From the IMG/VR virus record IMGVR_UViG_2531839030_000007: a DNA stretch of 7,233 bases, one strand, 5' to 3'. The translations under genes and the position numbers were made by a program. How positions within the stretch are numbered: position 1 is the first letter of the stretch; every line of letters starts with the position of its first letter. Shown in pieces: positions 1 through 7,233 of the stretch. A model generated the notes under the pieces. The model was not told the origin of the DNA. It did no database searches and was given only the letters and a program-made list of their open reading frames with translations. The DNA comes from a virus (lineage: Duplodnaviria > Heunggongvirae > Uroviricota > Caudoviricetes).

Positions 1-73
1 AACGTGTATTTTTAGTCATCCTGTTTACCTCTTTCTCAGGGAGTTTAGTCTCCAGGATTCCCGGGGCGGTTCA
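1..73 (-). mobile_element. Left end of an IS3-family insertion sequence (IS629/IS1203-like): terminal inverted repeat plus first codons of orfA; the element continues beyond the window start
   Basis: Read on the minus strand from position 73 the sequence is TGAACCGCCCCGGGAATCCTGGAGACTAAAC..., a TG-initiated terminal repeat I recognise as IS629-group. It is followed by an AGAGG Shine-Dalgarno and ATG at 19..17 opening ATG ACT AAA AAT ACA CGT (MTKNTR...), which matches the orfA N-terminus as I recall it. Tfa homology on the plus strand begins abruptly at about 74. Confidence 0.65.
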
Positions 74-189
74 ATCTGCTGGCCGGAACTAATGAATTTA
101 TTGGTGAAGGTGACGCATACATTCCGCCTCATACAGGTCTGCCAGCAAACAGTACCGATATTGCACCGCCAGATATTCCGGCTGGCTTC

Positions 190-606
190 GTGGCTGTTTT
201 CAACAGTAATGAGGCATCGTGGCATCTCGTTGAAGATCATCGGGGTAAAACGGTTTATGACGTGGCTTCCGGCGACGCGTTATTTATTTCTGAACTCGGT
301 CCGTTACCGGAAAATGTTACCTGGTTGTCGCCGGATGGAGAGTGTCAGAAGTGGAACGGCACATCCTGGGCGAAAGATGCAGAAGCAGAAAAACTGTTTC
401 GGGTACGGGAGGCAGAAGAAACAAAAAACAGCCTGATGCAGGTAGCCAGTGAGCATATTGCGCCACTTCAGGATGCCGTAGATTTGGATATTGCGACGGA
501 GGAAGAGGCATCGTTACTGGCTGCATGGAAGACATATCGGGTATTGTTGAATCGTGTTGATACAACAGTAGCAGCGGATGTTGAGTGGCCAGTCGCCCCA
601 CAATAA
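190..606 (+). CDS. tfa: Tail fibre assembly protein (Tfa family), 5'-truncated remnant; probably a pseudogene
   Basis: The translation (…[81 protein letters not shown]…VLLNRVD…) is near-identical to enterobacterial lambdoid/P2-type Tfa proteins as I recall them. The frame is open from 49 but has no ATG/GTG/TTG before the GTG at 190. The canonical Tfa N-terminus (about 16 residues, MAFRMSEQPRTIKIY in E. coli homologues) is not encoded; IS sequence takes its place. Stop is TAA at 604..606. Confidence 0.85.
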
Positions 607-613
607 AAAGAAA

Positions 614-641
614 AAGCCATCGACAGAAATATCGATGGCTT
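614..641. terminator. Bidirectional rho-independent terminator between the convergent tfa and acetyltransferase genes
   Basis: Perfect 10-bp inverted repeat AAGCCATCGA (614..623) / TCGATGGCTT (632..641) with an 8-nt loop. On the minus strand it is followed by TTTTTCTTTTTA, on the plus strand by TTATGTACTCTATTT. It lies 8 nt after the tfa stop and 9 nt after the minus-strand gene stop (650..652). Confidence 0.6.
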
Positions 642-649
642 TATGTACT

Positions 650-1222
650 CTATTTATACAATACAACACCACTCTTTTTAGTTATATATGTGCAGTTTGA
701 TGGTATATCTTTATTTATAAAAGACATTGCACCTATTTTTACATTATCCCCAATTTTACGTGATAATCCAATGATGCAACAATTAGCTCCGATATCAACG
801 TTACTACCAATTTTTACTCTTGAACTAGGCATATCACCATCTATCTGTCCAATGGTAGTATTCTGTCGTAATACCAGATTTTCACCCGCATCAACAGCAA
901 AATGAACAACAATTCCAGCATGATGGGGAATTGTCAACCCTTTTCCAATATTTGCGCCCAATCCTATTTCACAACCAAACTTGTTAATTATTTTACTGTT
1001 TAACTTTTTGGCTGCTTTCTTATGTAATTTATTACCATTAATATACATTTCGTTAGCCAACCGCCACCAGAAAAGGAAATTCCGGTTACGCTGCTTTTTC
1101 TCTCTTAAAAGCCTCCAGATATCCATACGTTTCCGCCGAATTACTTCATGTTTCCAGAAGTTTTTTAAATTAGTAGAGTTTCCAAATAAAACAAAGTGAA
1201 TTGCCATTAAGTAAGATAGCAC
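650..1222 (-). CDS. Hexapeptide-repeat (left-handed beta-helix) acetyltransferase, WcaB/CysE-like; AT-rich cargo gene
   Basis: The ORF is open 650..1255. Its translation carries the serine/sugar O-acetyltransferase signature FGCEIGLGANIGKGLTIPHHAGIVVH…GENLVLRQNTTIG…VKIGSNVDIGANCCIIG…IGDNVKIGAMSFINKDIP, preceded by an FWWRLA helical segment. Start is uncertain: GTG at 1222..1220 has AAGGAG 6 nt upstream (preferred); alternatives are GTG at 1255 and ATG at 1207. Hand counts of 60-nt blocks give about 25-32% G+C here against about 53% in a tail-gene block. Confidence 0.8.
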   Translation of the reverse strand: MLSYLMAIHFVLFGNSTNLKNFWKHEVIRRKRMDIWRLLREKKQRNRNFLFWWRLANEMYINGNKLHKKAAKKLNSKIINKFGCEIGLGANIGKGLTIPHHAGIVVHFAVDAGENLVLRQNTTIGQIDGDMPSSRVKIGSNVDIGANCCIIGLSRKIGDNVKIGAMSFINKDIPSNCTYITKKSGVVLYK

Positions 1223-1273
1223 GATAATCTCCTTAATTATTATTTCAGACCACACATGTTATAAGGTTAAGAG

Positions 1274-1302
1274 ATTATAAAATCCTGTTATTTGTTATTC
1301 AA
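1274..1302 (-). promoter_or_regulatory. Sigma70-type promoter for the acetyltransferase gene
   Basis: On the minus strand: -35 TTGAAT (1302..1297), a 17-bp spacer, and a perfect -10 TATAAT (1279..1274). There is an A/T-rich tract upstream of the -35. The predicted transcription start near 1267 lies upstream of the AAGGAG Shine-Dalgarno at 1234..1229. Confidence 0.45.
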
Positions 1303-1378
1303 AAACAATTTTCTGAGAAGGACATACAACAGCAAGTCGCCAGTCACCTTCATCAGGAAATTGGCGACATACGTTAAA

Positions 1379-1873
1379 TCAGAGCAGCCCCTTAACTGAG
1401 CTGGCCGCGCTATTAAGGGATGATGTCACCTTATCTTTGAAGCCGGACAGCATATCGCTGAACGATGAGGATTGCAGGCGCTCCCGCAAATCCTCATCAC
1501 AGCGTTCAAGAGTCAGTGAAAATTCTATCTTTTTCGCCTTACCGTAGCGATCAAACTCGGAGCGGGTCGTATTCGTTCCGGTCAGGACATACATGCCGTA
1601 AATCTGCCCGACGCCATCAATCAAAGGCCAAGGACGTCCTGTATATGCCTGCGTGGTCAACAACGACAGCGACACTTCGCCACCAGTAATCTCAGGATAA
1701 AGAACACCAGAAAGAACGATGCGATCATCACCTGCACCGATATACTGCCAGCTTGCTGAACGGTTAACGCGTTCATTTTTCACATGTCGCCAGCTTTTGT
1801 TTTGCTGTAACTGCTGATGCGGCAACGTGCGCAGCTCAAAAACAAACATGCCGTAGATCATCATCATGGCCAT
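1379..1873 (-). CDS. U: P2 gpU-like tail protein
   Basis: The translation shares blocks with P2 gpU as recalled (LSGVLYPEITGG, WPLIDGVGQIYGMYV, KIEFSLTLERCDE). GAGGAG lies just upstream of the ATG cluster at 1873..1861, and the upstream tape-measure fragment ends at 1880..1882. Stop is TGA at 1379..1381. Confidence 0.88.
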   Translation of the reverse strand: MAMMMIYGMFVFELRTLPHQQLQQNKSWRHVKNERVNRSASWQYIGAGDDRIVLSGVLYPEITGGEVSLSLLTTQAYTGRPWPLIDGVGQIYGMYVLTGTNTTRSEFDRYGKAKKIEFSLTLERCDEDLRERLQSSSFSDMLSGFKDKVTSSLNSAASSVKGLL

Positions 1874-1879
1874 GACTCC

Positions 1880-2716
1880 TCAATCTTTATCGTAAAAACT
1901 GCCACGCCTGGCACGGGCGCGCCGTTCCATTTCTGCCCTGACCATTTCGCCGACCAGTTTCGCCAGTTCGCGGGGATTCTGCGTAACAACGTTATGCAGA
2001 TGAACATGAATTTCACCGCCAAATCCGGAGGCAACAGGCTCCCGGTTACGGGAAGTTGCAGGAACTGATGCCACTGGCGATCGTATGGCCTCCACCACCG
2101 GGCGGGAGCTGGCCGCAACAACAGGGACCAGCGCCGGAGGCAGCGGAGCCGGGACCACGGGTGTGATATTAATTGCGGGGGCAGGCTTACTGACCTGCGC
2201 AATCTTCCGCTCCTGCCACTCCCCACGAACAGCAAGTGCGCGGGGCAGGTTCTTAAAGACAATATCGCCGGGGCCAATGCGTTTTTTTGTCTCATCAACC
2301 AGCTTACCTGTGTTATCAGCAATTTTGCTGAGTCTGCGTAGCGTGCCGGTATTGCTGTCTGTGAGAGGTTTGTTGTCTTTGGGTTTATCATCTCCGGTGC
2401 CATTGCTATTTCCCGCAGACTTCGGCGGATTGATTTTCGCAATGTCTCCCTGAAACAGAGCAACCTTGTCCTGAAGAATGGCCGCACGTTGTGCGTCTTC
2501 GATTTTCTTGCGCGCCCTTTCCGCTTCATCCGGAAGCACACCGAGTTTTTCAAGTATCCACGCCAGCGTATCCAGCAACATTTTTGCAGGCGTCAGAACA
2601 AGCTGTAACGCACCACCAAGAACGTTACCGAATACCTCGCCAGCACTGGTACATTTATCCAGCGTTTCCTTGCTGGACTCCATCGGTGACAGCAGCGATT
2701 TAAACCAGTTAAACAC
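1880..2716 (-). CDS. T: Tail tape measure protein, C-terminal portion, out of frame with the N-terminal portion (frameshifted gene or pseudogene)
   Basis: A 278-codon ORF that overlaps the 3' end of the 708-codon tape-measure ORF in a different frame. It sits directly between the tape measure and gpU, as the tape-measure C-terminus does in P2. Its frame opens just after a TGA within the overlap. Confidence 0.75.
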   Translation of the reverse strand: MFNWFKSLLSPMESSKETLDKCTSAGEVFGNVLGGALQLVLTPAKMLLDTLAWILEKLGVLPDEAERARKKIEDAQRAAILQDKVALFQGDIAKINPPKSAGNSNGTGDDKPKDNKPLTDSNTGTLRRLSKIADNTGKLVDETKKRIGPGDIVFKNLPRALAVRGEWQERKIAQVSKPAPAINITPVVPAPLPPALVPVVAASSRPVVEAIRSPVASVPATSRNREPVASGFGGEIHVHLHNVVTQNPRELAKLVGEMVRAEMERRARARRGSFYDKD

Positions 2717-4719
2717 CTGGCTGAACCGCTTCCGATTACGTCAAAAACAGGGCCAAACCGTTCAAAGGTGTCGCGCAACGGGGTCAGCCTTTCCATAATC
2801 CCGCTGAACACCCCGGCAAAGAAAGCCCTGATAGGATCCCAGTATTTCCAGATAAGAACGGCAGCTCCGGCAAGCGCAGCCACGATAAGACCAACCGGAC
2901 TGAACAACGCCCCGATAACGCCTCCCAGTAAAGAAACGGAACCCGTCACCATTCCCCATAGCGCAGGTAACACCCTGACGACATTCATTGACCGGGTAAG
3001 AATGTCAAAACCAAGACGCAGGGTGGCCAGCTTCCCGTAAAGCACCCCAATAACCAGCGACAACGAGCCAATCGTTGCAGTCATTGCCAGCAACGCACCG
3101 CCTGCTATCAGTAGCTGGCGCGTCAGTACCGGATGGGCCTGCGCCAGCGAGGTGATTTTTTCAAGCACCCGCGTGAGCCACTGCGTGACAGAACGCAGCG
3201 GACCGTCAACCAGATCACTGATGCGAATACGAAGACCTTCCCATGCGCTGTCGAGATTTTTCAGGTCCCCATCAAGATTATCAGCCATTACTTTTGCGAC
3301 GCGATCGGCCTCTCCCCTTGCCCCCTGCAATTCTCTGGTCAGTTTTTGCAGCTCTCCTGAACCAGCCGCCGCAACAAGCGTCTGCAAACCAACGAACGCC
3401 TCTTCTCCGGCGATGTCCTTGAAGAAGGAGACCTGGTCCACCTGTCCGTATTTTTGTGTCGCCTTATAGAGATCAAGCAGCACATCCTCCATCGGGCGCA
3501 TTTTGCCTCTGGCGTCAGCAACTGACACCCCCAGCTCTTTCAGTGCATCAGCCGCAGCTTTTGGCGGTGATGCAAGGCGGGACAGACTTGCGCGCATGGC
3601 CGTGCCAGCATCGCTTCCGCGAAGACCATTATTGGCAAGCATCCCGGCCATGGCCGCCGCTTCTTCAAGACTGATACCAAGTTTTGCGGCAACCGGACCG
3701 GTATACTTCATGGTTTCGCCCAGCGCGCGTAAATCAGTATTGGTCCGGGTAAATGCTGCTGTCAGCGTATCGCCCACCCGGTCCATTTGATCGGCTGTCA
3801 GGTTGAACTGTGTGAGGATATTGGAGCCTATATCAGCCGTCTCGCCGAGTTCGACGCCACCTGCCAGCGCCATATTAAGAACACCGGGCAATGCGGCCTG
3901 AATGGCCTGCGGAGTAAAACCAGCCATTGCCAGAAAGCTCTGCCCACTGGCGGCATCACTCGCAGTAAACTGTGTTTCAGCAAGTTTTAACGCCTGCTCA
4001 CGCAGCGCCTTAAACTGCGGGCTGTTTTTGTCGATTCGCGTCAGTGCCTGAACGCGGGACATCTCTTTGCCGAACCCGATCGCAGGCTGCAAAAAACGCC
4101 CGGCAGCATAGCCGCCCGCCGCTGCCGCACCAATTGCCAGCGCACCACCTGTTTTCAGTTTTCCCGCGGTTTCCTGCGCGTGCGAATACCGCTCACGCGC
4201 CTGCGTTACACGCGCAAGCGCCTGCCGTTCGCGTTCAAGCTGGTTGTTGTATTGTTCGGTGCGTCTGATGGCCTGCTGAATGGTGTTATCGCTGCCTGTC
4301 AGGGAAATGCCGTGGCGTTTCAGCTCTCCGCCAAGTTCCCTCATTTTCTGAATTTCCCGTGTGCGCGATTCATTCAGGCGTTCAAGCCGGGTGCTTAACT
4401 GCTGCATCAGCTTTTGTTGTTTTTCGCTGAGCACTGTACCCGTGCGTTGTAACTGATTAAGGGCGTTAAGCTGGCGTCGTGCTTTCACGATGCCAGCATC
4501 CGCTTTACTGACAGCGTCGCGGGCGCGCTCAAATGATCGCGCCTGACGCTCGAGATTTTTGATCGCCCCCTGCGTTCGCTGGATGGAGTCACCAAACTGC
4601 CCCATCAGGCGGCGTGCGTTTTCGGCAGGTCGGGTCAGCCTGTCAACGGCGCTGAAAGCGACCCGGATATCAAGAGTCTTCATTGTCTGCATTCCCGCTG
4701 CGAAGTGCCGCCCGCTCAC
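2593..4719 (-). CDS. T: Tail tape measure protein, N-terminal portion (P2 gpT-like)
   Basis: A 708-codon ORF with coiled-coil-like Ala/Gln/Arg/Leu-rich segments and C-terminal hydrophobic Gly/Ala-rich stretches typical of tape measures, located between E/E' and gpU. The last roughly 45 residues (…GSGSARCLTGLNRCCHRWSP…) look out of frame. The true start is probably ATG at 4692 or 4683, overlapping the E' stop at 4670..4672, rather than GTG at 4719. Confidence 0.88.
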   Translation of the reverse strand: MSGRHFAAGMQTMKTLDIRVAFSAVDRLTRPAENARRLMGQFGDSIQRTQGAIKNLERQARSFERARDAVSKADAGIVKARRQLNALNQLQRTGTVLSEKQQKLMQQLSTRLERLNESRTREIQKMRELGGELKRHGISLTGSDNTIQQAIRRTEQYNNQLERERQALARVTQARERYSHAQETAGKLKTGGALAIGAAAAGGYAAGRFLQPAIGFGKEMSRVQALTRIDKNSPQFKALREQALKLAETQFTASDAASGQSFLAMAGFTPQAIQAALPGVLNMALAGGVELGETADIGSNILTQFNLTADQMDRVGDTLTAAFTRTNTDLRALGETMKYTGPVAAKLGISLEEAAAMAGMLANNGLRGSDAGTAMRASLSRLASPPKAAADALKELGVSVADARGKMRPMEDVLLDLYKATQKYGQVDQVSFFKDIAGEEAFVGLQTLVAAAGSGELQKLTRELQGARGEADRVAKVMADNLDGDLKNLDSAWEGLRIRISDLVDGPLRSVTQWLTRVLEKITSLAQAHPVLTRQLLIAGGALLAMTATIGSLSLVIGVLYGKLATLRLGFDILTRSMNVVRVLPALWGMVTGSVSLLGGVIGALFSPVGLIVAALAGAAVLIWKYWDPIRAFFAGVFSGIMERLTPLRDTFERFGPVFDVIGSGSARCLTGLNRCCHRWSPARKRWINVPVLARYSVTFLVVRYSLF

Positions 4720-5199
4720 GCCAGCTAACCACTTCGCCGGGCGTCATCATGAAGATTTCGGCGGGCGACCAGTTAAAAATAACGGCAATATCTGCCACAA
4801 AGTCTTCTATGTGCTCAAAGCACACAACCGTGATCAGGCTTCCGTCGCCTGTTCGTTCTTCCCGCCAGAGTCCGCACCGCTCAAAAAATTTACGGCAACC
4901 ACACATAACTGAATAAAGTCACGGGATGCCATTTTTTTGATCGTCACTTCATCCAGTCGCGGTGATGTCACGCGTGACAGCAGCGTAAACATGGATTCCG
5001 CTTTCAGATTCAGCACATCAGACAGCGACAAATCTCGCAGAGATCCAGCCTGCTCAATAGCCCCGGTGATCTCCACATACGTGATTTTTTCGCCGCCTCG
5101 CTCAATTGGTTGGGTAAGTTTTACACCACGCTCACTGGTTTCTTTCACAGTGTCAGTAACTACCGTGTTTTCGGTATCGATGTTTTTCGTCTCTTTCAT
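4670..5199 (-). CDS. Tail assembly chaperone E+E' fusion, made by programmed -1 ribosomal frameshift (P2 gpE+E'-like)
   Basis: The E frame (5199..4882) joins the -1 frame (4882..4670) at the slippery heptamer T_TTT_TTG. The -1 frame encodes …SPAEIFMMTPGEVVSWRER…, and the predicted fusion is about 176 aa. The arrangement of E, E' and T matches the P2 FETUD operon. Confidence 0.7.
4834..5199 (-). CDS. E: Tail assembly chaperone E (P2 gpE-like)
   Basis: A 121-codon ORF containing PIERGGEKITYVEI. AGGAG lies 8 nt upstream of the ATG at 5199..5197. It sits between the tube and tape-measure genes. Confidence 0.85.
   Translation of the reverse strand: MKETKNIDTENTVVTDTVKETSERGVKLTQPIERGGEKITYVEITGAIEQAGSLRDLSLSDVLNLKAESMFTLLSRVTSPRLDEVTIKKMASRDFIQLCVVAVNFLSGADSGGKNEQATEA
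4882..4888 (-). other. Programmed -1 frameshift slippery heptamer T_TTT_TTG for E/E'
   Basis: The minus strand reads AAT TTT TTG in the E frame (codons N104-F105-L106). The -1 frame is open from this point to 4670, and the E frame terminates 15 codons later at 4834..4836. Confidence 0.7.
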
Positions 5200-5253
5200 C
5201 AGGAAACTCCTTTCAGTCAGAGGCGACGCACTGCGCCGCCTGCATATTACTTA

Positions 5254-5766
5254 TCAGCCAAGCCCAAGCGCGGAACGGATGCGATCGGGCACAATGTCCT
5301 TGCCGTCCTTCCGGTAAATGAAGTTCAGCAGGTCAATCTCCCACAACGGGCGATCGTTAACACTCAGCTTGTAGTAGGTGTTTTTAATGGCGTAAGTGTG
5401 TGATGTGGCTTCGCCCTGTTTGGCTTCCCCCATATCAATTTCCGTCACACGTCCGCGCATTTCGACTTCATACAGGTCGCTTTCATCATCGGTGTAGTAT
5501 TCCCCCGCAAAACGCAGTAGCGTGCCGTCAATCGTGCCGCCATACTTCAGGAACAGCTCACGAACTGCGCCCCCCATGACAAAGCTCGCATCAAGCGCGG
5601 AGTCGTCCAGGCCGAGGTCAATACTTACCGCACCCATCATGCCACCACCCCGGTAGCTGTCGGTTTTGCGCGTCAGTTTAGGCAGGGTGACGGACGTCAC
5701 CTTACCCACTTCGTTTTCACCATCCACAAACAGCGTAAAAAAGCGAAGATGTTTTGGTACAGCCAT
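5254..5766 (-). CDS. FII: Tail tube protein (P2 gpFII-like)
   Basis: The translation contains VTLPKLTRK…YRGGGM…DLGLDD…LRFAGEY…EVEMRGR, matching P2 FII blocks as recalled. GGGAGG lies upstream of the ATG at 5766..5764, which overlaps the FI stop as TGATG. Confidence 0.93.
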   Translation of the reverse strand: MAVPKHLRFFTLFVDGENEVGKVTSVTLPKLTRKTDSYRGGGMMGAVSIDLGLDDSALDASFVMGGAVRELFLKYGGTIDGTLLRFAGEYYTDDESDLYEVEMRGRVTEIDMGEAKQGEATSHTYAIKNTYYKLSVNDRPLWEIDLLNFIYRKDGKDIVPDRIRSALGLG

Positions 5767-6950
5767 CAGGCACCTCCCAGCACCGCAAATGCGGGACCAA
5801 AGAATTCATCAGTAAACGACTGGTAAAGCTCCATGTCTTCCAGCGGAGGAACGGGCGTATATTTGTAGCGAATACGCACACGCCCCTGACGTAAATTCGT
5901 GGTGCTGTTATCCTCGATGTCATACCAGCACTCCGCGCCAATCAGTTTCCCGGCAGTAACCAGTGAATCCAGTTTTGCCCTGATGGCACTGATAACATCC
6001 TTCACGTTCGCAGGTGTCAGTGGACTGTCGATGGTTTCAAACTGCGCTTCCGCAATTGAATCAGCCAGCACCTGTGCGGTTCGGGTATACACCTCAAAGA
6101 TGTAGGCGTTCGTTTCCGGTGTGCGGTTGCCCCAGAAGCGGAACCCGTTGCGACGAATAATGGTCGTGATTTCTTTGTTGTTGAGGCTGTTGGCATCACT
6201 GTCTTCGGCCTGCAACGACCAGAACACATGCCTCGACATCCCAAGCACATTTTTAACCGGAACGTTGGACAGCGATTTGTGCCAGCCCTGCTCATGGTCA
6301 ATGTACGCACGAAGGCCGCACGCATAAGCAGGCGCGGGGAACGTTTCGTTTTTGCCACTTTTCAGGTTGTAGGCGATGAAGTCAGGCCATAAGAGCATCA
6401 CCTCACGTTCGTTGAATTTCTGGCGGTAGGTAATCGCCTCAGCCATCGTGTTACAACCATGACATGTGGCATACACAAACGCGCGCAGTTTACCCGCAAT
6501 CACGCACAGGGATTTTGTTACCGCCTCCGTGTCCAGCTCCGGCGCGGCCAGAATACGCGGACGGTATCCGATGCTTTCATCCTGCTCTGCAACAAGCAGC
6601 GCATACATCCCCGTATAGCTGCCGTCAGATTCAGAACCACCGATAACCAGTTGATCCTGCGTCTTACCGCCTTCTTCTTTGTGTTCAGCCACGCGAACGA
6701 CGATCACTTTTGTGCTCACCTGGTCTGCGATAGCCTTAAGCGCACGATAAAGCGTCCCCGTAGTCCCGCATTTTCCCAGCACGTCATTGACGCGGGTCAG
6801 CAGTGTGGGCTTGTTCAGCGGGAACAGCTCCGCGTCCGCATCATCTGCCGTTGCCACGATACCGATAACACTGGAATCAACATCATTAATCGCTGTTACC
6901 AGGTCGGTACTTTCCGTAACACGGGCACCATGAAAACGAGTTTCACTCAT
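5766..6950 (-). CDS. FI: Contractile tail sheath protein (P2 gpFI-like)
   Basis: The 394-aa translation carries P2 FI blocks (ADDADAELFPLNKP, KLRAFVYA, WPDF, EQGWHKSLSNV, RRNGFRFWGNRT, YKYTPVPPLE). AAGGGG lies 9 nt upstream of the ATG at 6950..6948. Confidence 0.95.
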   Translation of the reverse strand: MSETRFHGARVTESTDLVTAINDVDSSVIGIVATADDADAELFPLNKPTLLTRVNDVLGKCGTTGTLYRALKAIADQVSTKVIVVRVAEHKEEGGKTQDQLVIGGSESDGSYTGMYALLVAEQDESIGYRPRILAAPELDTEAVTKSLCVIAGKLRAFVYATCHGCNTMAEAITYRQKFNEREVMLLWPDFIAYNLKSGKNETFPAPAYACGLRAYIDHEQGWHKSLSNVPVKNVLGMSRHVFWSLQAEDSDANSLNNKEITTIIRRNGFRFWGNRTPETNAYIFEVYTRTAQVLADSIAEAQFETIDSPLTPANVKDVISAIRAKLDSLVTAGKLIGAECWYDIEDNSTTNLRQGRVRIRYKYTPVPPLEDMELYQSFTDEFFGPAFAVLGGA

Positions 6951-7161
6951 AGCTTCAGCCCCTTGTATCCGTTAAATGATTCGGCAACAATCATCACCCA
7001 CCACGCGCGTAATCTCACCCCTGCGCCGTTCTCCCGCCACGGCGACAACAAAAAGCAGTAACCCCCTCCGCACGCACATGCGACCATGCCGCACAGGGAG
7101 GGAACAGATGACCGACACCACCATGCAATTGCTCAGTCAGGGCACAGACCACGTGAAAGTT

Positions 7162-7233
7162 TGTTCGCCTTAACCATCCTGATATTTGCTCTGGAGACCA
7201 TTTCATCTCCAGCTTTTCCAGAACAAGCTTTCG
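7162..7233 (-). mobile_element. Internal fragment of an IS30-family transposase gene, truncated at about 7161; continues beyond the window end
   Basis: The minus-strand frame running through 7233..7162 encodes RKLVLEKLEMKWSPEQISGWLRRT, which matches the IS30 transposase segment (…LRKLVLEKLEMKWSPEQISGWLRRTKPRQK…) as I recall it, including the WSPEQISG hallmark. Below 7162 the frame continues as NFHVVCALTEQ…, which is unrelated, and no other frame continues the IS30 sequence. Confidence 0.6.

Follow-up and report, generated by a model that had tools for sequence, protein, structure and literature searches.

The interval after gpU in the defective prophage Sp13/CP-933T of Escherichia coli O157:H7 is very probably an ordinary spacer of the P88-like lineage

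INTRODUCTION

In phage P2, the genes G (+) and fun(Z) (−) are followed by FI-FII-E-T-U-D-ogr as a co-oriented run on the (+) strand, in which U overlaps the start of D. The P88-like lineage (Xuanwuvirus/Gemsvirus-type Peduoviridae) is arranged differently. In P88 (Xuanwuvirus) and 500465-2 (Gemsvirus), one strand carries the baseplate genes, H, tfa, and D, and the other carries FI-U; D begins 157 bp from FI and is divergent from it. P88 is a plaque-forming phage with a contractile tail (PMC5285337).

Sp13 is the sole P2-like, morphogenesis-defective prophage of E. coli O157 Sakai, and most of its morphogenetic genes are missing (PMC2669165). Despite these defects, it excises, replicates after mitomycin C treatment, and is packaged with the help of other prophages; an ogr homologue has been reported in the P4-like prophage Sp2 (PMC2669165).

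Here, we examine a 7,233-nucleotide stretch of tailed-phage DNA (the window). An earlier reading, based on the P2 gene order (the original prediction), placed a synteny break at positions 1256 to 1378, directly after gpU, and proposed that D and ogr had been replaced there by cargo DNA and a tfa remnant.

RESULTS

Identity of the element

A megablast search of complete E. coli genomes found window positions 1 to 7160 to be 100% identical to CP-933T of strain EDL933, and many O157:H7 chromosomes matched the window at 100% identity. In EDL933, the matching region is flanked by yecA on one side and the leuZ-cysT-glyW tRNA genes on the other, and the prophage around it carries a P2-type integrase, a repressor, a replication endonuclease, and ParM-type partition genes. 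By both sequence identity and chromosomal position, the element is the known defective P2-like prophage of E. coli O157:H7, named Sp13 in Sakai and CP-933T in EDL933. As a remnant, Sp13 is without about half of its genome. The features of the window are as follows.

1-73 (−): end of an IS3-family element, annotated as a transposase pseudogene, IS629/IS1203-like (RefSeq, identical EDL933 sequence)
19-17 (−): start codon of the IS3-family transposase (element end at 73)
76-606 (+): tail-fiber assembly gene tfa (lambda Tfa/gpK type), 5′-truncated (Pfam Caudo_TAP, E = 2.6e-40; PHROG 105)
613-642 (no strand): hairpin with a 13-bp stem and T runs flanking it on both strands (terminator scan)
650-1222 (−): low-GC cargo acetyltransferase gene, 190 aa from GTG 1222 (GC content; profile matches)
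1223-1312 (−): upstream region of the cargo gene, with a promoter-like site and a Shine-Dalgarno sequence (promoter scan)
1336-1368 (−): hairpin after the gpU stop, followed by UUGCUGUUGU (RNA fold)
1373 (no strand): left limit of homology with P88, 500465-2, and PhiSM (alignment)
1379-1873 (−): tail gene gpU, intact (Pfam Phage_P2_GpU, E = 1.5e-38; 46% identity to P2 U by tblastn)
1880-4719 (−): tape measure gene T, pseudogene (ORFs, RefSeq, alignment to relatives)
4670-5199 (−): tail chaperones E and E+E′ in overlapping frames (Pfam Phage_P2_GpE, E = 1.7e-12; weak Phage_TAC_7; RefSeq)
5254-5766 (−): tail tube gene FII, intact (Pfam Phage_tube, E = 1.3e-47)
5766-6950 (−): tail sheath gene FI, intact (three Pfam sheath domains; 45% identity to P2 FI by tblastn)
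6951-7107 (no strand): divergent FI/D regulatory spacer (about 99% conserved in five P88-like genomes)
7108-7160 (+): first 17 to 18 codons of gpD (baseplate hub) (tblastn with the O103 D protein)
7161-7233 (−): internal fragment of an IS30 transposase gene (EDL933 comparison)

The contiguous genes FI, FII, E/E′, T, and gpU on one strand constitute a P2-family (Peduoviridae) contractile-tail module (Pfam; tblastn). Their order is not of the P2 (Peduovirus) type: the D gene, which begins at 7108 (+), diverges from FI, and tfa and U are convergent. DNA identity, the orientation of FI-U, and the conserved FI/D spacer place the element in the P88-like lineage.

Much of what the original prediction had described was found as stated. 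The stop of gpU is at 1379 on the (−) strand, neither D nor ogr lies downstream of U, and the cargo that follows is AT rich (GC content of 0.30 to 0.37 versus about 0.50) and holds a hexapeptide acetyltransferase ORF. A tfa remnant, its 5′ end cut by the IS3-family end, lies on the opposite strand, the tape measure gene is split, and the sheath, tube, and U ORFs (FI, FII, and U) are intact by Pfam. The cargo had also been called convergent; this is true with respect to tfa, but the cargo gene shares the (−) strand with gpU.

Colinearity with complete-looking prophages

The original prediction had proposed aligning the window to P2-like relatives to find the exact breakpoint. Positions 73 to 7158 of the window aligned as one colinear block to the prophages of O103 strain RM8385 (94.1% identity) and CP66-6 (91.9%), with XH989 colinear too, and no breakpoint fell in the interval. 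The alignments to RM8385 and CP66-6 are gap-free from 73 to 2723. The proposed synteny break at 1256 to 1378 is contradicted by the interval itself, which is gap-free and 98.4 to 99.2% identical to the complete-looking prophages. The order in all three is H, tfa (+), acetyltransferase (−), U-T-E′-E-FII-FI (−), D (+), a cargo position, ogr (+), and hok. The RM8385 prophage occupies the chromosomal site of Sp13, and its gene set includes integrase, repressor, replication/early, portal, terminase, capsid, lysis, baseplate, and fiber genes. Among 5,426 complete E. coli genomes, tfa, the acetyltransferase gene, and U were colinear in 495.

According to the original prediction, a functional relative with the same U-cargo-tfa order would point to an alternative gene arrangement rather than a deletion. 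P88 has this architecture, and the complete-looking prophages have the exact junction; their completeness was judged from annotation only, and no phage of demonstrated function carries the exact tfa-acetyltransferase-U junction. The D gene is full length in RM8385 (1,101 bp). In CP66-6 (locus positions 26157 to 27010) and XH989 (locus positions 18157 to 19010), D is annotated as a shortened 801-bp ORF after a pseudogene fragment, and these two prophages may be tail defective too.

Orientation of the FI-U block

Phages P88, 500465-2, PhiR44_2, and P884B11 and Citrobacter phage PhiSM matched window positions 1373 to 7158 as one piece, at 91 to 97% identity. In P88, 500465-2, and PhiSM, the matched piece comprises U-T-E-FII-FI, the FI/D spacer, and the divergent start of D. 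Comparing the P2 map with the P88-like maps, the difference is a clean inversion of FI-U, and by gene order the P88-like lineage reads as the P2 order with this block inverted in place. As a consequence of the inversion, D is divergent from FI, and the 3′ end of U faces the tail-fiber/tfa region across a slot. A search of the window found no inverted repeat at the end points of the block. P2 is the wrong reference for gene order in this element.

The claim that gpD and ogr are absent held in part: ogr and a functional D are missing, but the start of D is present. The O103 D protein (Pfam Phage_GPD, 8.2e-18), used as a tblastn query, found the D start codon and the first 17 to 18 codons at 7108 to 7160. 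The 157-bp FI/D spacer upstream of it (6951 to 7107) is about 99% identical in five genomes, whereas the flanking genes differ by 2 to 8%. No exact match to the Ogr-type motif TGT-N12-ACA was found, including in this spacer, and copies with one mismatch occurred at chance frequency (34 found versus 35 expected). For one such copy, at 7030 to 7047, the distance upstream of the FI start codon is 88 nt, compared with 83 nt in P2; as a candidate activator site, it is only suggestive.

The spacer between gpU and the cargo gene

The spacer proper is 1223 to 1378 rather than 1256 to 1378, as the cargo gene more probably starts at GTG 1222 than at 1255. The GTG is favored because an AAGGAG Shine-Dalgarno sequence (1234 to 1229) precedes it. 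GC content falls sharply at about 1370, at the edge of the AT-rich stretch.

A hairpin at 1336 to 1368 (−) lies 10 nt downstream of the gpU stop. The surrounding 96 nt fold at −25.4 kcal/mol (z = −3.66), and none of 200 shuffled sequences folded equally well. The U tract after the stem is poor, the hairpin is without variation by which to test it, and P88 has a different hairpin in the same position after U. The hairpin is probably a (weak) intrinsic terminator of the FI-U tail operon, as predicted from the fold. A sigma-70-like promoter follows on the same strand, with −35 TTGAAT at 1302 to 1297, a 17-nt gap, and −10 TATAAT at 1279 to 1274 (10 of 12 consensus positions). We infer that this promoter, the AAGGAG, and GTG 1222 form a predicted expression unit for the cargo gene; the step is an inferential one because the number of promoter-like sites in the AT-rich stretch is at chance level (4 found versus 3.2 expected). 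At the other end of the cargo gene, the hairpin at 613 to 642 is likely a strong bidirectional terminator, again by prediction, that closes the convergent tfa and acetyltransferase genes.

An Rfam scan gave no match in 1223 to 1378. The only match in the window above its gathering score was IS009, full length at 371 to 569 (+) with 191 bits (gathering score, 117), and here this model appears to describe conserved tfa coding DNA and not a separate RNA gene. A 20-nt inverted match (17 of 20 positions) links tfa positions 95 to 114 with the loop of the post-U hairpin (1343 to 1362) and does not extend further. We rejected it as an inversion repeat, since it is at chance level, with an estimated ∼0.8 such pairs expected in 7.2 kb; several inverted pairs equal to or better than this one were found elsewhere in the window.

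Lesions in the prophage

The lesions of the prophage are located away from the spacer. On the left, alignment with the intact O103 tfa gene breaks at 73/74, where the IS3-family end cuts tfa at about codon 15. By tblastn, the window Tfa aligns to residues 15 to 193 of O103 Tfa at 94% identity; the IS3-family end at 1 to 73 has cost the gene about 15 N-terminal codons. The region from the partition gene to tfa is missing as well. In RM8385 it spans about 16.4 kb, from portal through H (head, lysis, baseplate, and fiber genes). T has lost 1 nt at 2724/2725 and, in frame, 3 nt near 3980 compared with intact relatives.

D and ogr were not replaced after U, as had been proposed; an IS30 insertion together with a 3.3-kb deletion eliminated them on the right, on the far side of the block. 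The EDL933 sequence shows IS30 simply inserted at D codon 90: tblastn finds D residues 1 to 90, then IS30, and then residues 89 to 115. The 89-codon D fragment is named "late control D family" in RefSeq. Besides the remaining part of D, the separate 3.3-kb deletion took out ogr, hok, and a YecA-family cargo gene. A comparison of positions 22375 to 23621 of the EDL933 locus (L001) with positions 26154 to 29549 of locus L005 shows that the insertion and the deletion are two independent events. The original prediction had called for a search of the rest of the genome for the missing genes. Within the 38 kb of the EDL933 locus, tblastn recovered the D fragments and found no homologues of ogr, hok, H, portal, V, or J.

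The window has a further deletion of 903 bp at 7160/7161, where EDL933 locus position 22160 is joined to 23064 and D codon 18 runs into the interior of IS30. As this joint lies inside IS30, the window contains no IS30 terminal repeat. Elsewhere, the joint was found only in strain 93_161312 (Japan) among the 5,426 complete E. coli genomes. A check for an artifact thus found the joint in an independent complete genome, and it could act as a sublineage marker.

The view that the element is a defective remnant unable to build a tail by itself holds, as ogr and a functional D are missing and T is broken; this had already been described for Sp13 (PMC2669165).

The cargo gene and its slot

Homology to P88 and 500465-2 ends at 1373, 6 nt past the gpU stop. 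This position is the edge of the lineage's variable cargo slot, which has alternative contents, and is not a scar. The slot holds an alternative fiber-tip/tfa pair and a serine DNA invertase in P88-type phages and the acetyltransferase gene in the O157/O103 type. The acetyltransferase gene is absent from P88 and present in O103-type prophages and in P1-like and lambdoid phages. P1-like phages carry the tfa-acetyltransferase pair at 90 to 93% identity; the copy in phage JL22 (locus positions 4956 to 6054) sits inside the cin-invertible fiber segment. A more diverged copy follows stf-tfa in a lambdoid prophage of O111:H21 (locus positions 5807 to 7001). Only positions 1223 to about 1312 travel with the acetyltransferase gene, and the lambdoid copy of this upstream region keeps the Shine-Dalgarno sequence and key −10 positions; positions 1313 to 1372 are specific to the junction in the window. 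That tfa and the convergent acetyltransferase gene (window positions 76 to 1222) travel as one cassette in three phage families suggests that the enzyme and this fiber type are functionally linked.

The cargo protein belongs to PHROG 2154 (2.9e-87), and solved serine acetyltransferases match its residues 54 to 180 at 1.5e-12. Its Pfam Hexapep score of 24.1 bits is just under the cutoff of 27. The RefSeq name, serine O-acetyltransferase, is not to be read literally. The score is under every NCBIfam equivalog cutoff: 62.4 bits versus 210.65 for CysE (TIGR01172), 76.2 versus 150 for EpsC, and 54 to 56 versus about 195 for WcaB. Judged from its sequence, the product is best called a CysE/WcaB-like hexapeptide acyltransferase. 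The gene has the hallmarks of a phage moron, with deviant GC content, a predicted promoter and terminator of its own, and presence or absence among similar phages.

DISCUSSION

We conclude that 1256 to 1378, in a P88-like member of the Peduoviridae, is very probably a normal, conserved spacer, which separates the end of the tail operon from a cargo acetyltransferase gene in the same orientation, and that the defects of Sp13/CP-933T lie elsewhere. In this lineage, FI-U is inverted in place relative to P2, with the 3′ end of U meeting the tfa region across a variable cargo slot that corresponds to the fun(Z) slot; D and ogr lie beyond FI, and D is divergent from it. A weak tail-operon terminator (1336 to 1368) and the sigma-70 promoter and ribosome-binding site of the cargo gene (1302 to 1229) most likely occupy the spacer, functions that are predicted. 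On the left, an IS3-family insertion, accompanied by the loss of ∼16 kb next to it, took the portal-to-tail-fiber genes and the first ∼15 codons of tfa. T was broken by the 1-nt deletion, and the IS30 insertion in D, along with deletions, took what was left of D as well as ogr and hok.

The deletion originally proposed, which would have removed D and ogr after gpU and brought unrelated cargo and an inverted tfa fragment beside U, draws on three observations: the order departs from that of P2 after U, the GC content drops sharply at about 1370, and homology to P88 and 500465-2 stops at 1373. However, the same junction is present base for base in complete-looking prophages that retain D and ogr past FI, the window contains the beginning of D (at 7108), and the stop at 1373 is the edge of a variable slot, so we regard such a deletion as very improbable. 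An inversion specific to O157, in which flanking IS elements flipped FI-U between tfa and D, is scarcely credible. The block does lie between an IS3-family end (1 to 73) and IS30 (7161 onward), and its order is that of P2 with FI-U inverted. Nevertheless, the two IS elements come from separate families and are located beyond tfa and D rather than at the end points of the inversion, and no inverted repeat flanks the block. We rejected this inversion because IS-free prophages and phage P88 have the same orientation.

A third explanation is compatible with the conserved spacer and not opposed to it: the spacer may also be a past recombination joint, at which a fiber-tip/tfa/acetyltransferase cassette from another phage family replaced the invertase/invertible-segment cassette of a P88-type ancestor before the prophage decayed. 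The cassette occurs in P1-like phages, including JL22, and in a more distant form in a lambdoid prophage; only 1223 to ∼1312 is mobile with it, 1313 to 1372 is unique to the junction, and the P88 backbone begins at 1373. We give this exchange an even chance; it may have run in either direction, with either cassette ancestral.

The element is ordinary and already known, with nothing new or surprising for a specialist: a defective prophage described before, whose junction shows the arrangement that is native to a known lineage and widespread in it. One speculative possibility, which we hold with little confidence, is that the fiber-linked acetyltransferase is a fixed partner of a single tail-fiber-tip/tfa cassette that moves among lambdoid, P1-like, and P2-like phages, where it might acetylate the surface polysaccharide recognized by the fiber, shielding lysogens from superinfection, or the fiber itself. 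A fixed partnership of this kind would account for an intact acetyltransferase gene with its own promoter in an otherwise decayed O157 prophage.

When the gene order of P2 serves as the yardstick for P2-family prophages, the P88-like ones, a common lineage with a natively inverted tail operon, are wrongly called rearranged or decayed. In O157:H7, the comparison fixes the true sites of damage in Sp13/CP-933T as the IS3-family-associated 16-kb deletion, the T frameshift, and, in D/ogr, the IS30 insertion and the deletion. It also indicates that the tfa-U slot of the P88-like lineage takes exchangeable cassettes, either an invertase-driven fiber switch or a fiber-linked acetyltransferase.

Among the known systems, Sp13/CP-933T is the element itself, and the window differs from it by a further 903-bp deletion, which brings D codon 18 up against the interior of IS30. 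The prophages of O103 RM8385, CP66-6, and XH989 share the junction, but unlike the window they keep the head, lysis, baseplate, and fiber genes, ogr, an unbroken T, and D, which looks disrupted in CP66-6 and XH989. P88, 500465-2, and PhiSM are complete and without the acetyltransferase gene, whereas the window is a remnant that carries it. P2 is more distant: it shares homologous FI, FII, E/E′, T, U, D, and ogr, with a protein identity of only about 45%, and its cargo slot lies after G and holds fun(Z), convergent with G, whereas in the P88-like lineage the slot lies after tfa and abuts the 3′ end of U.
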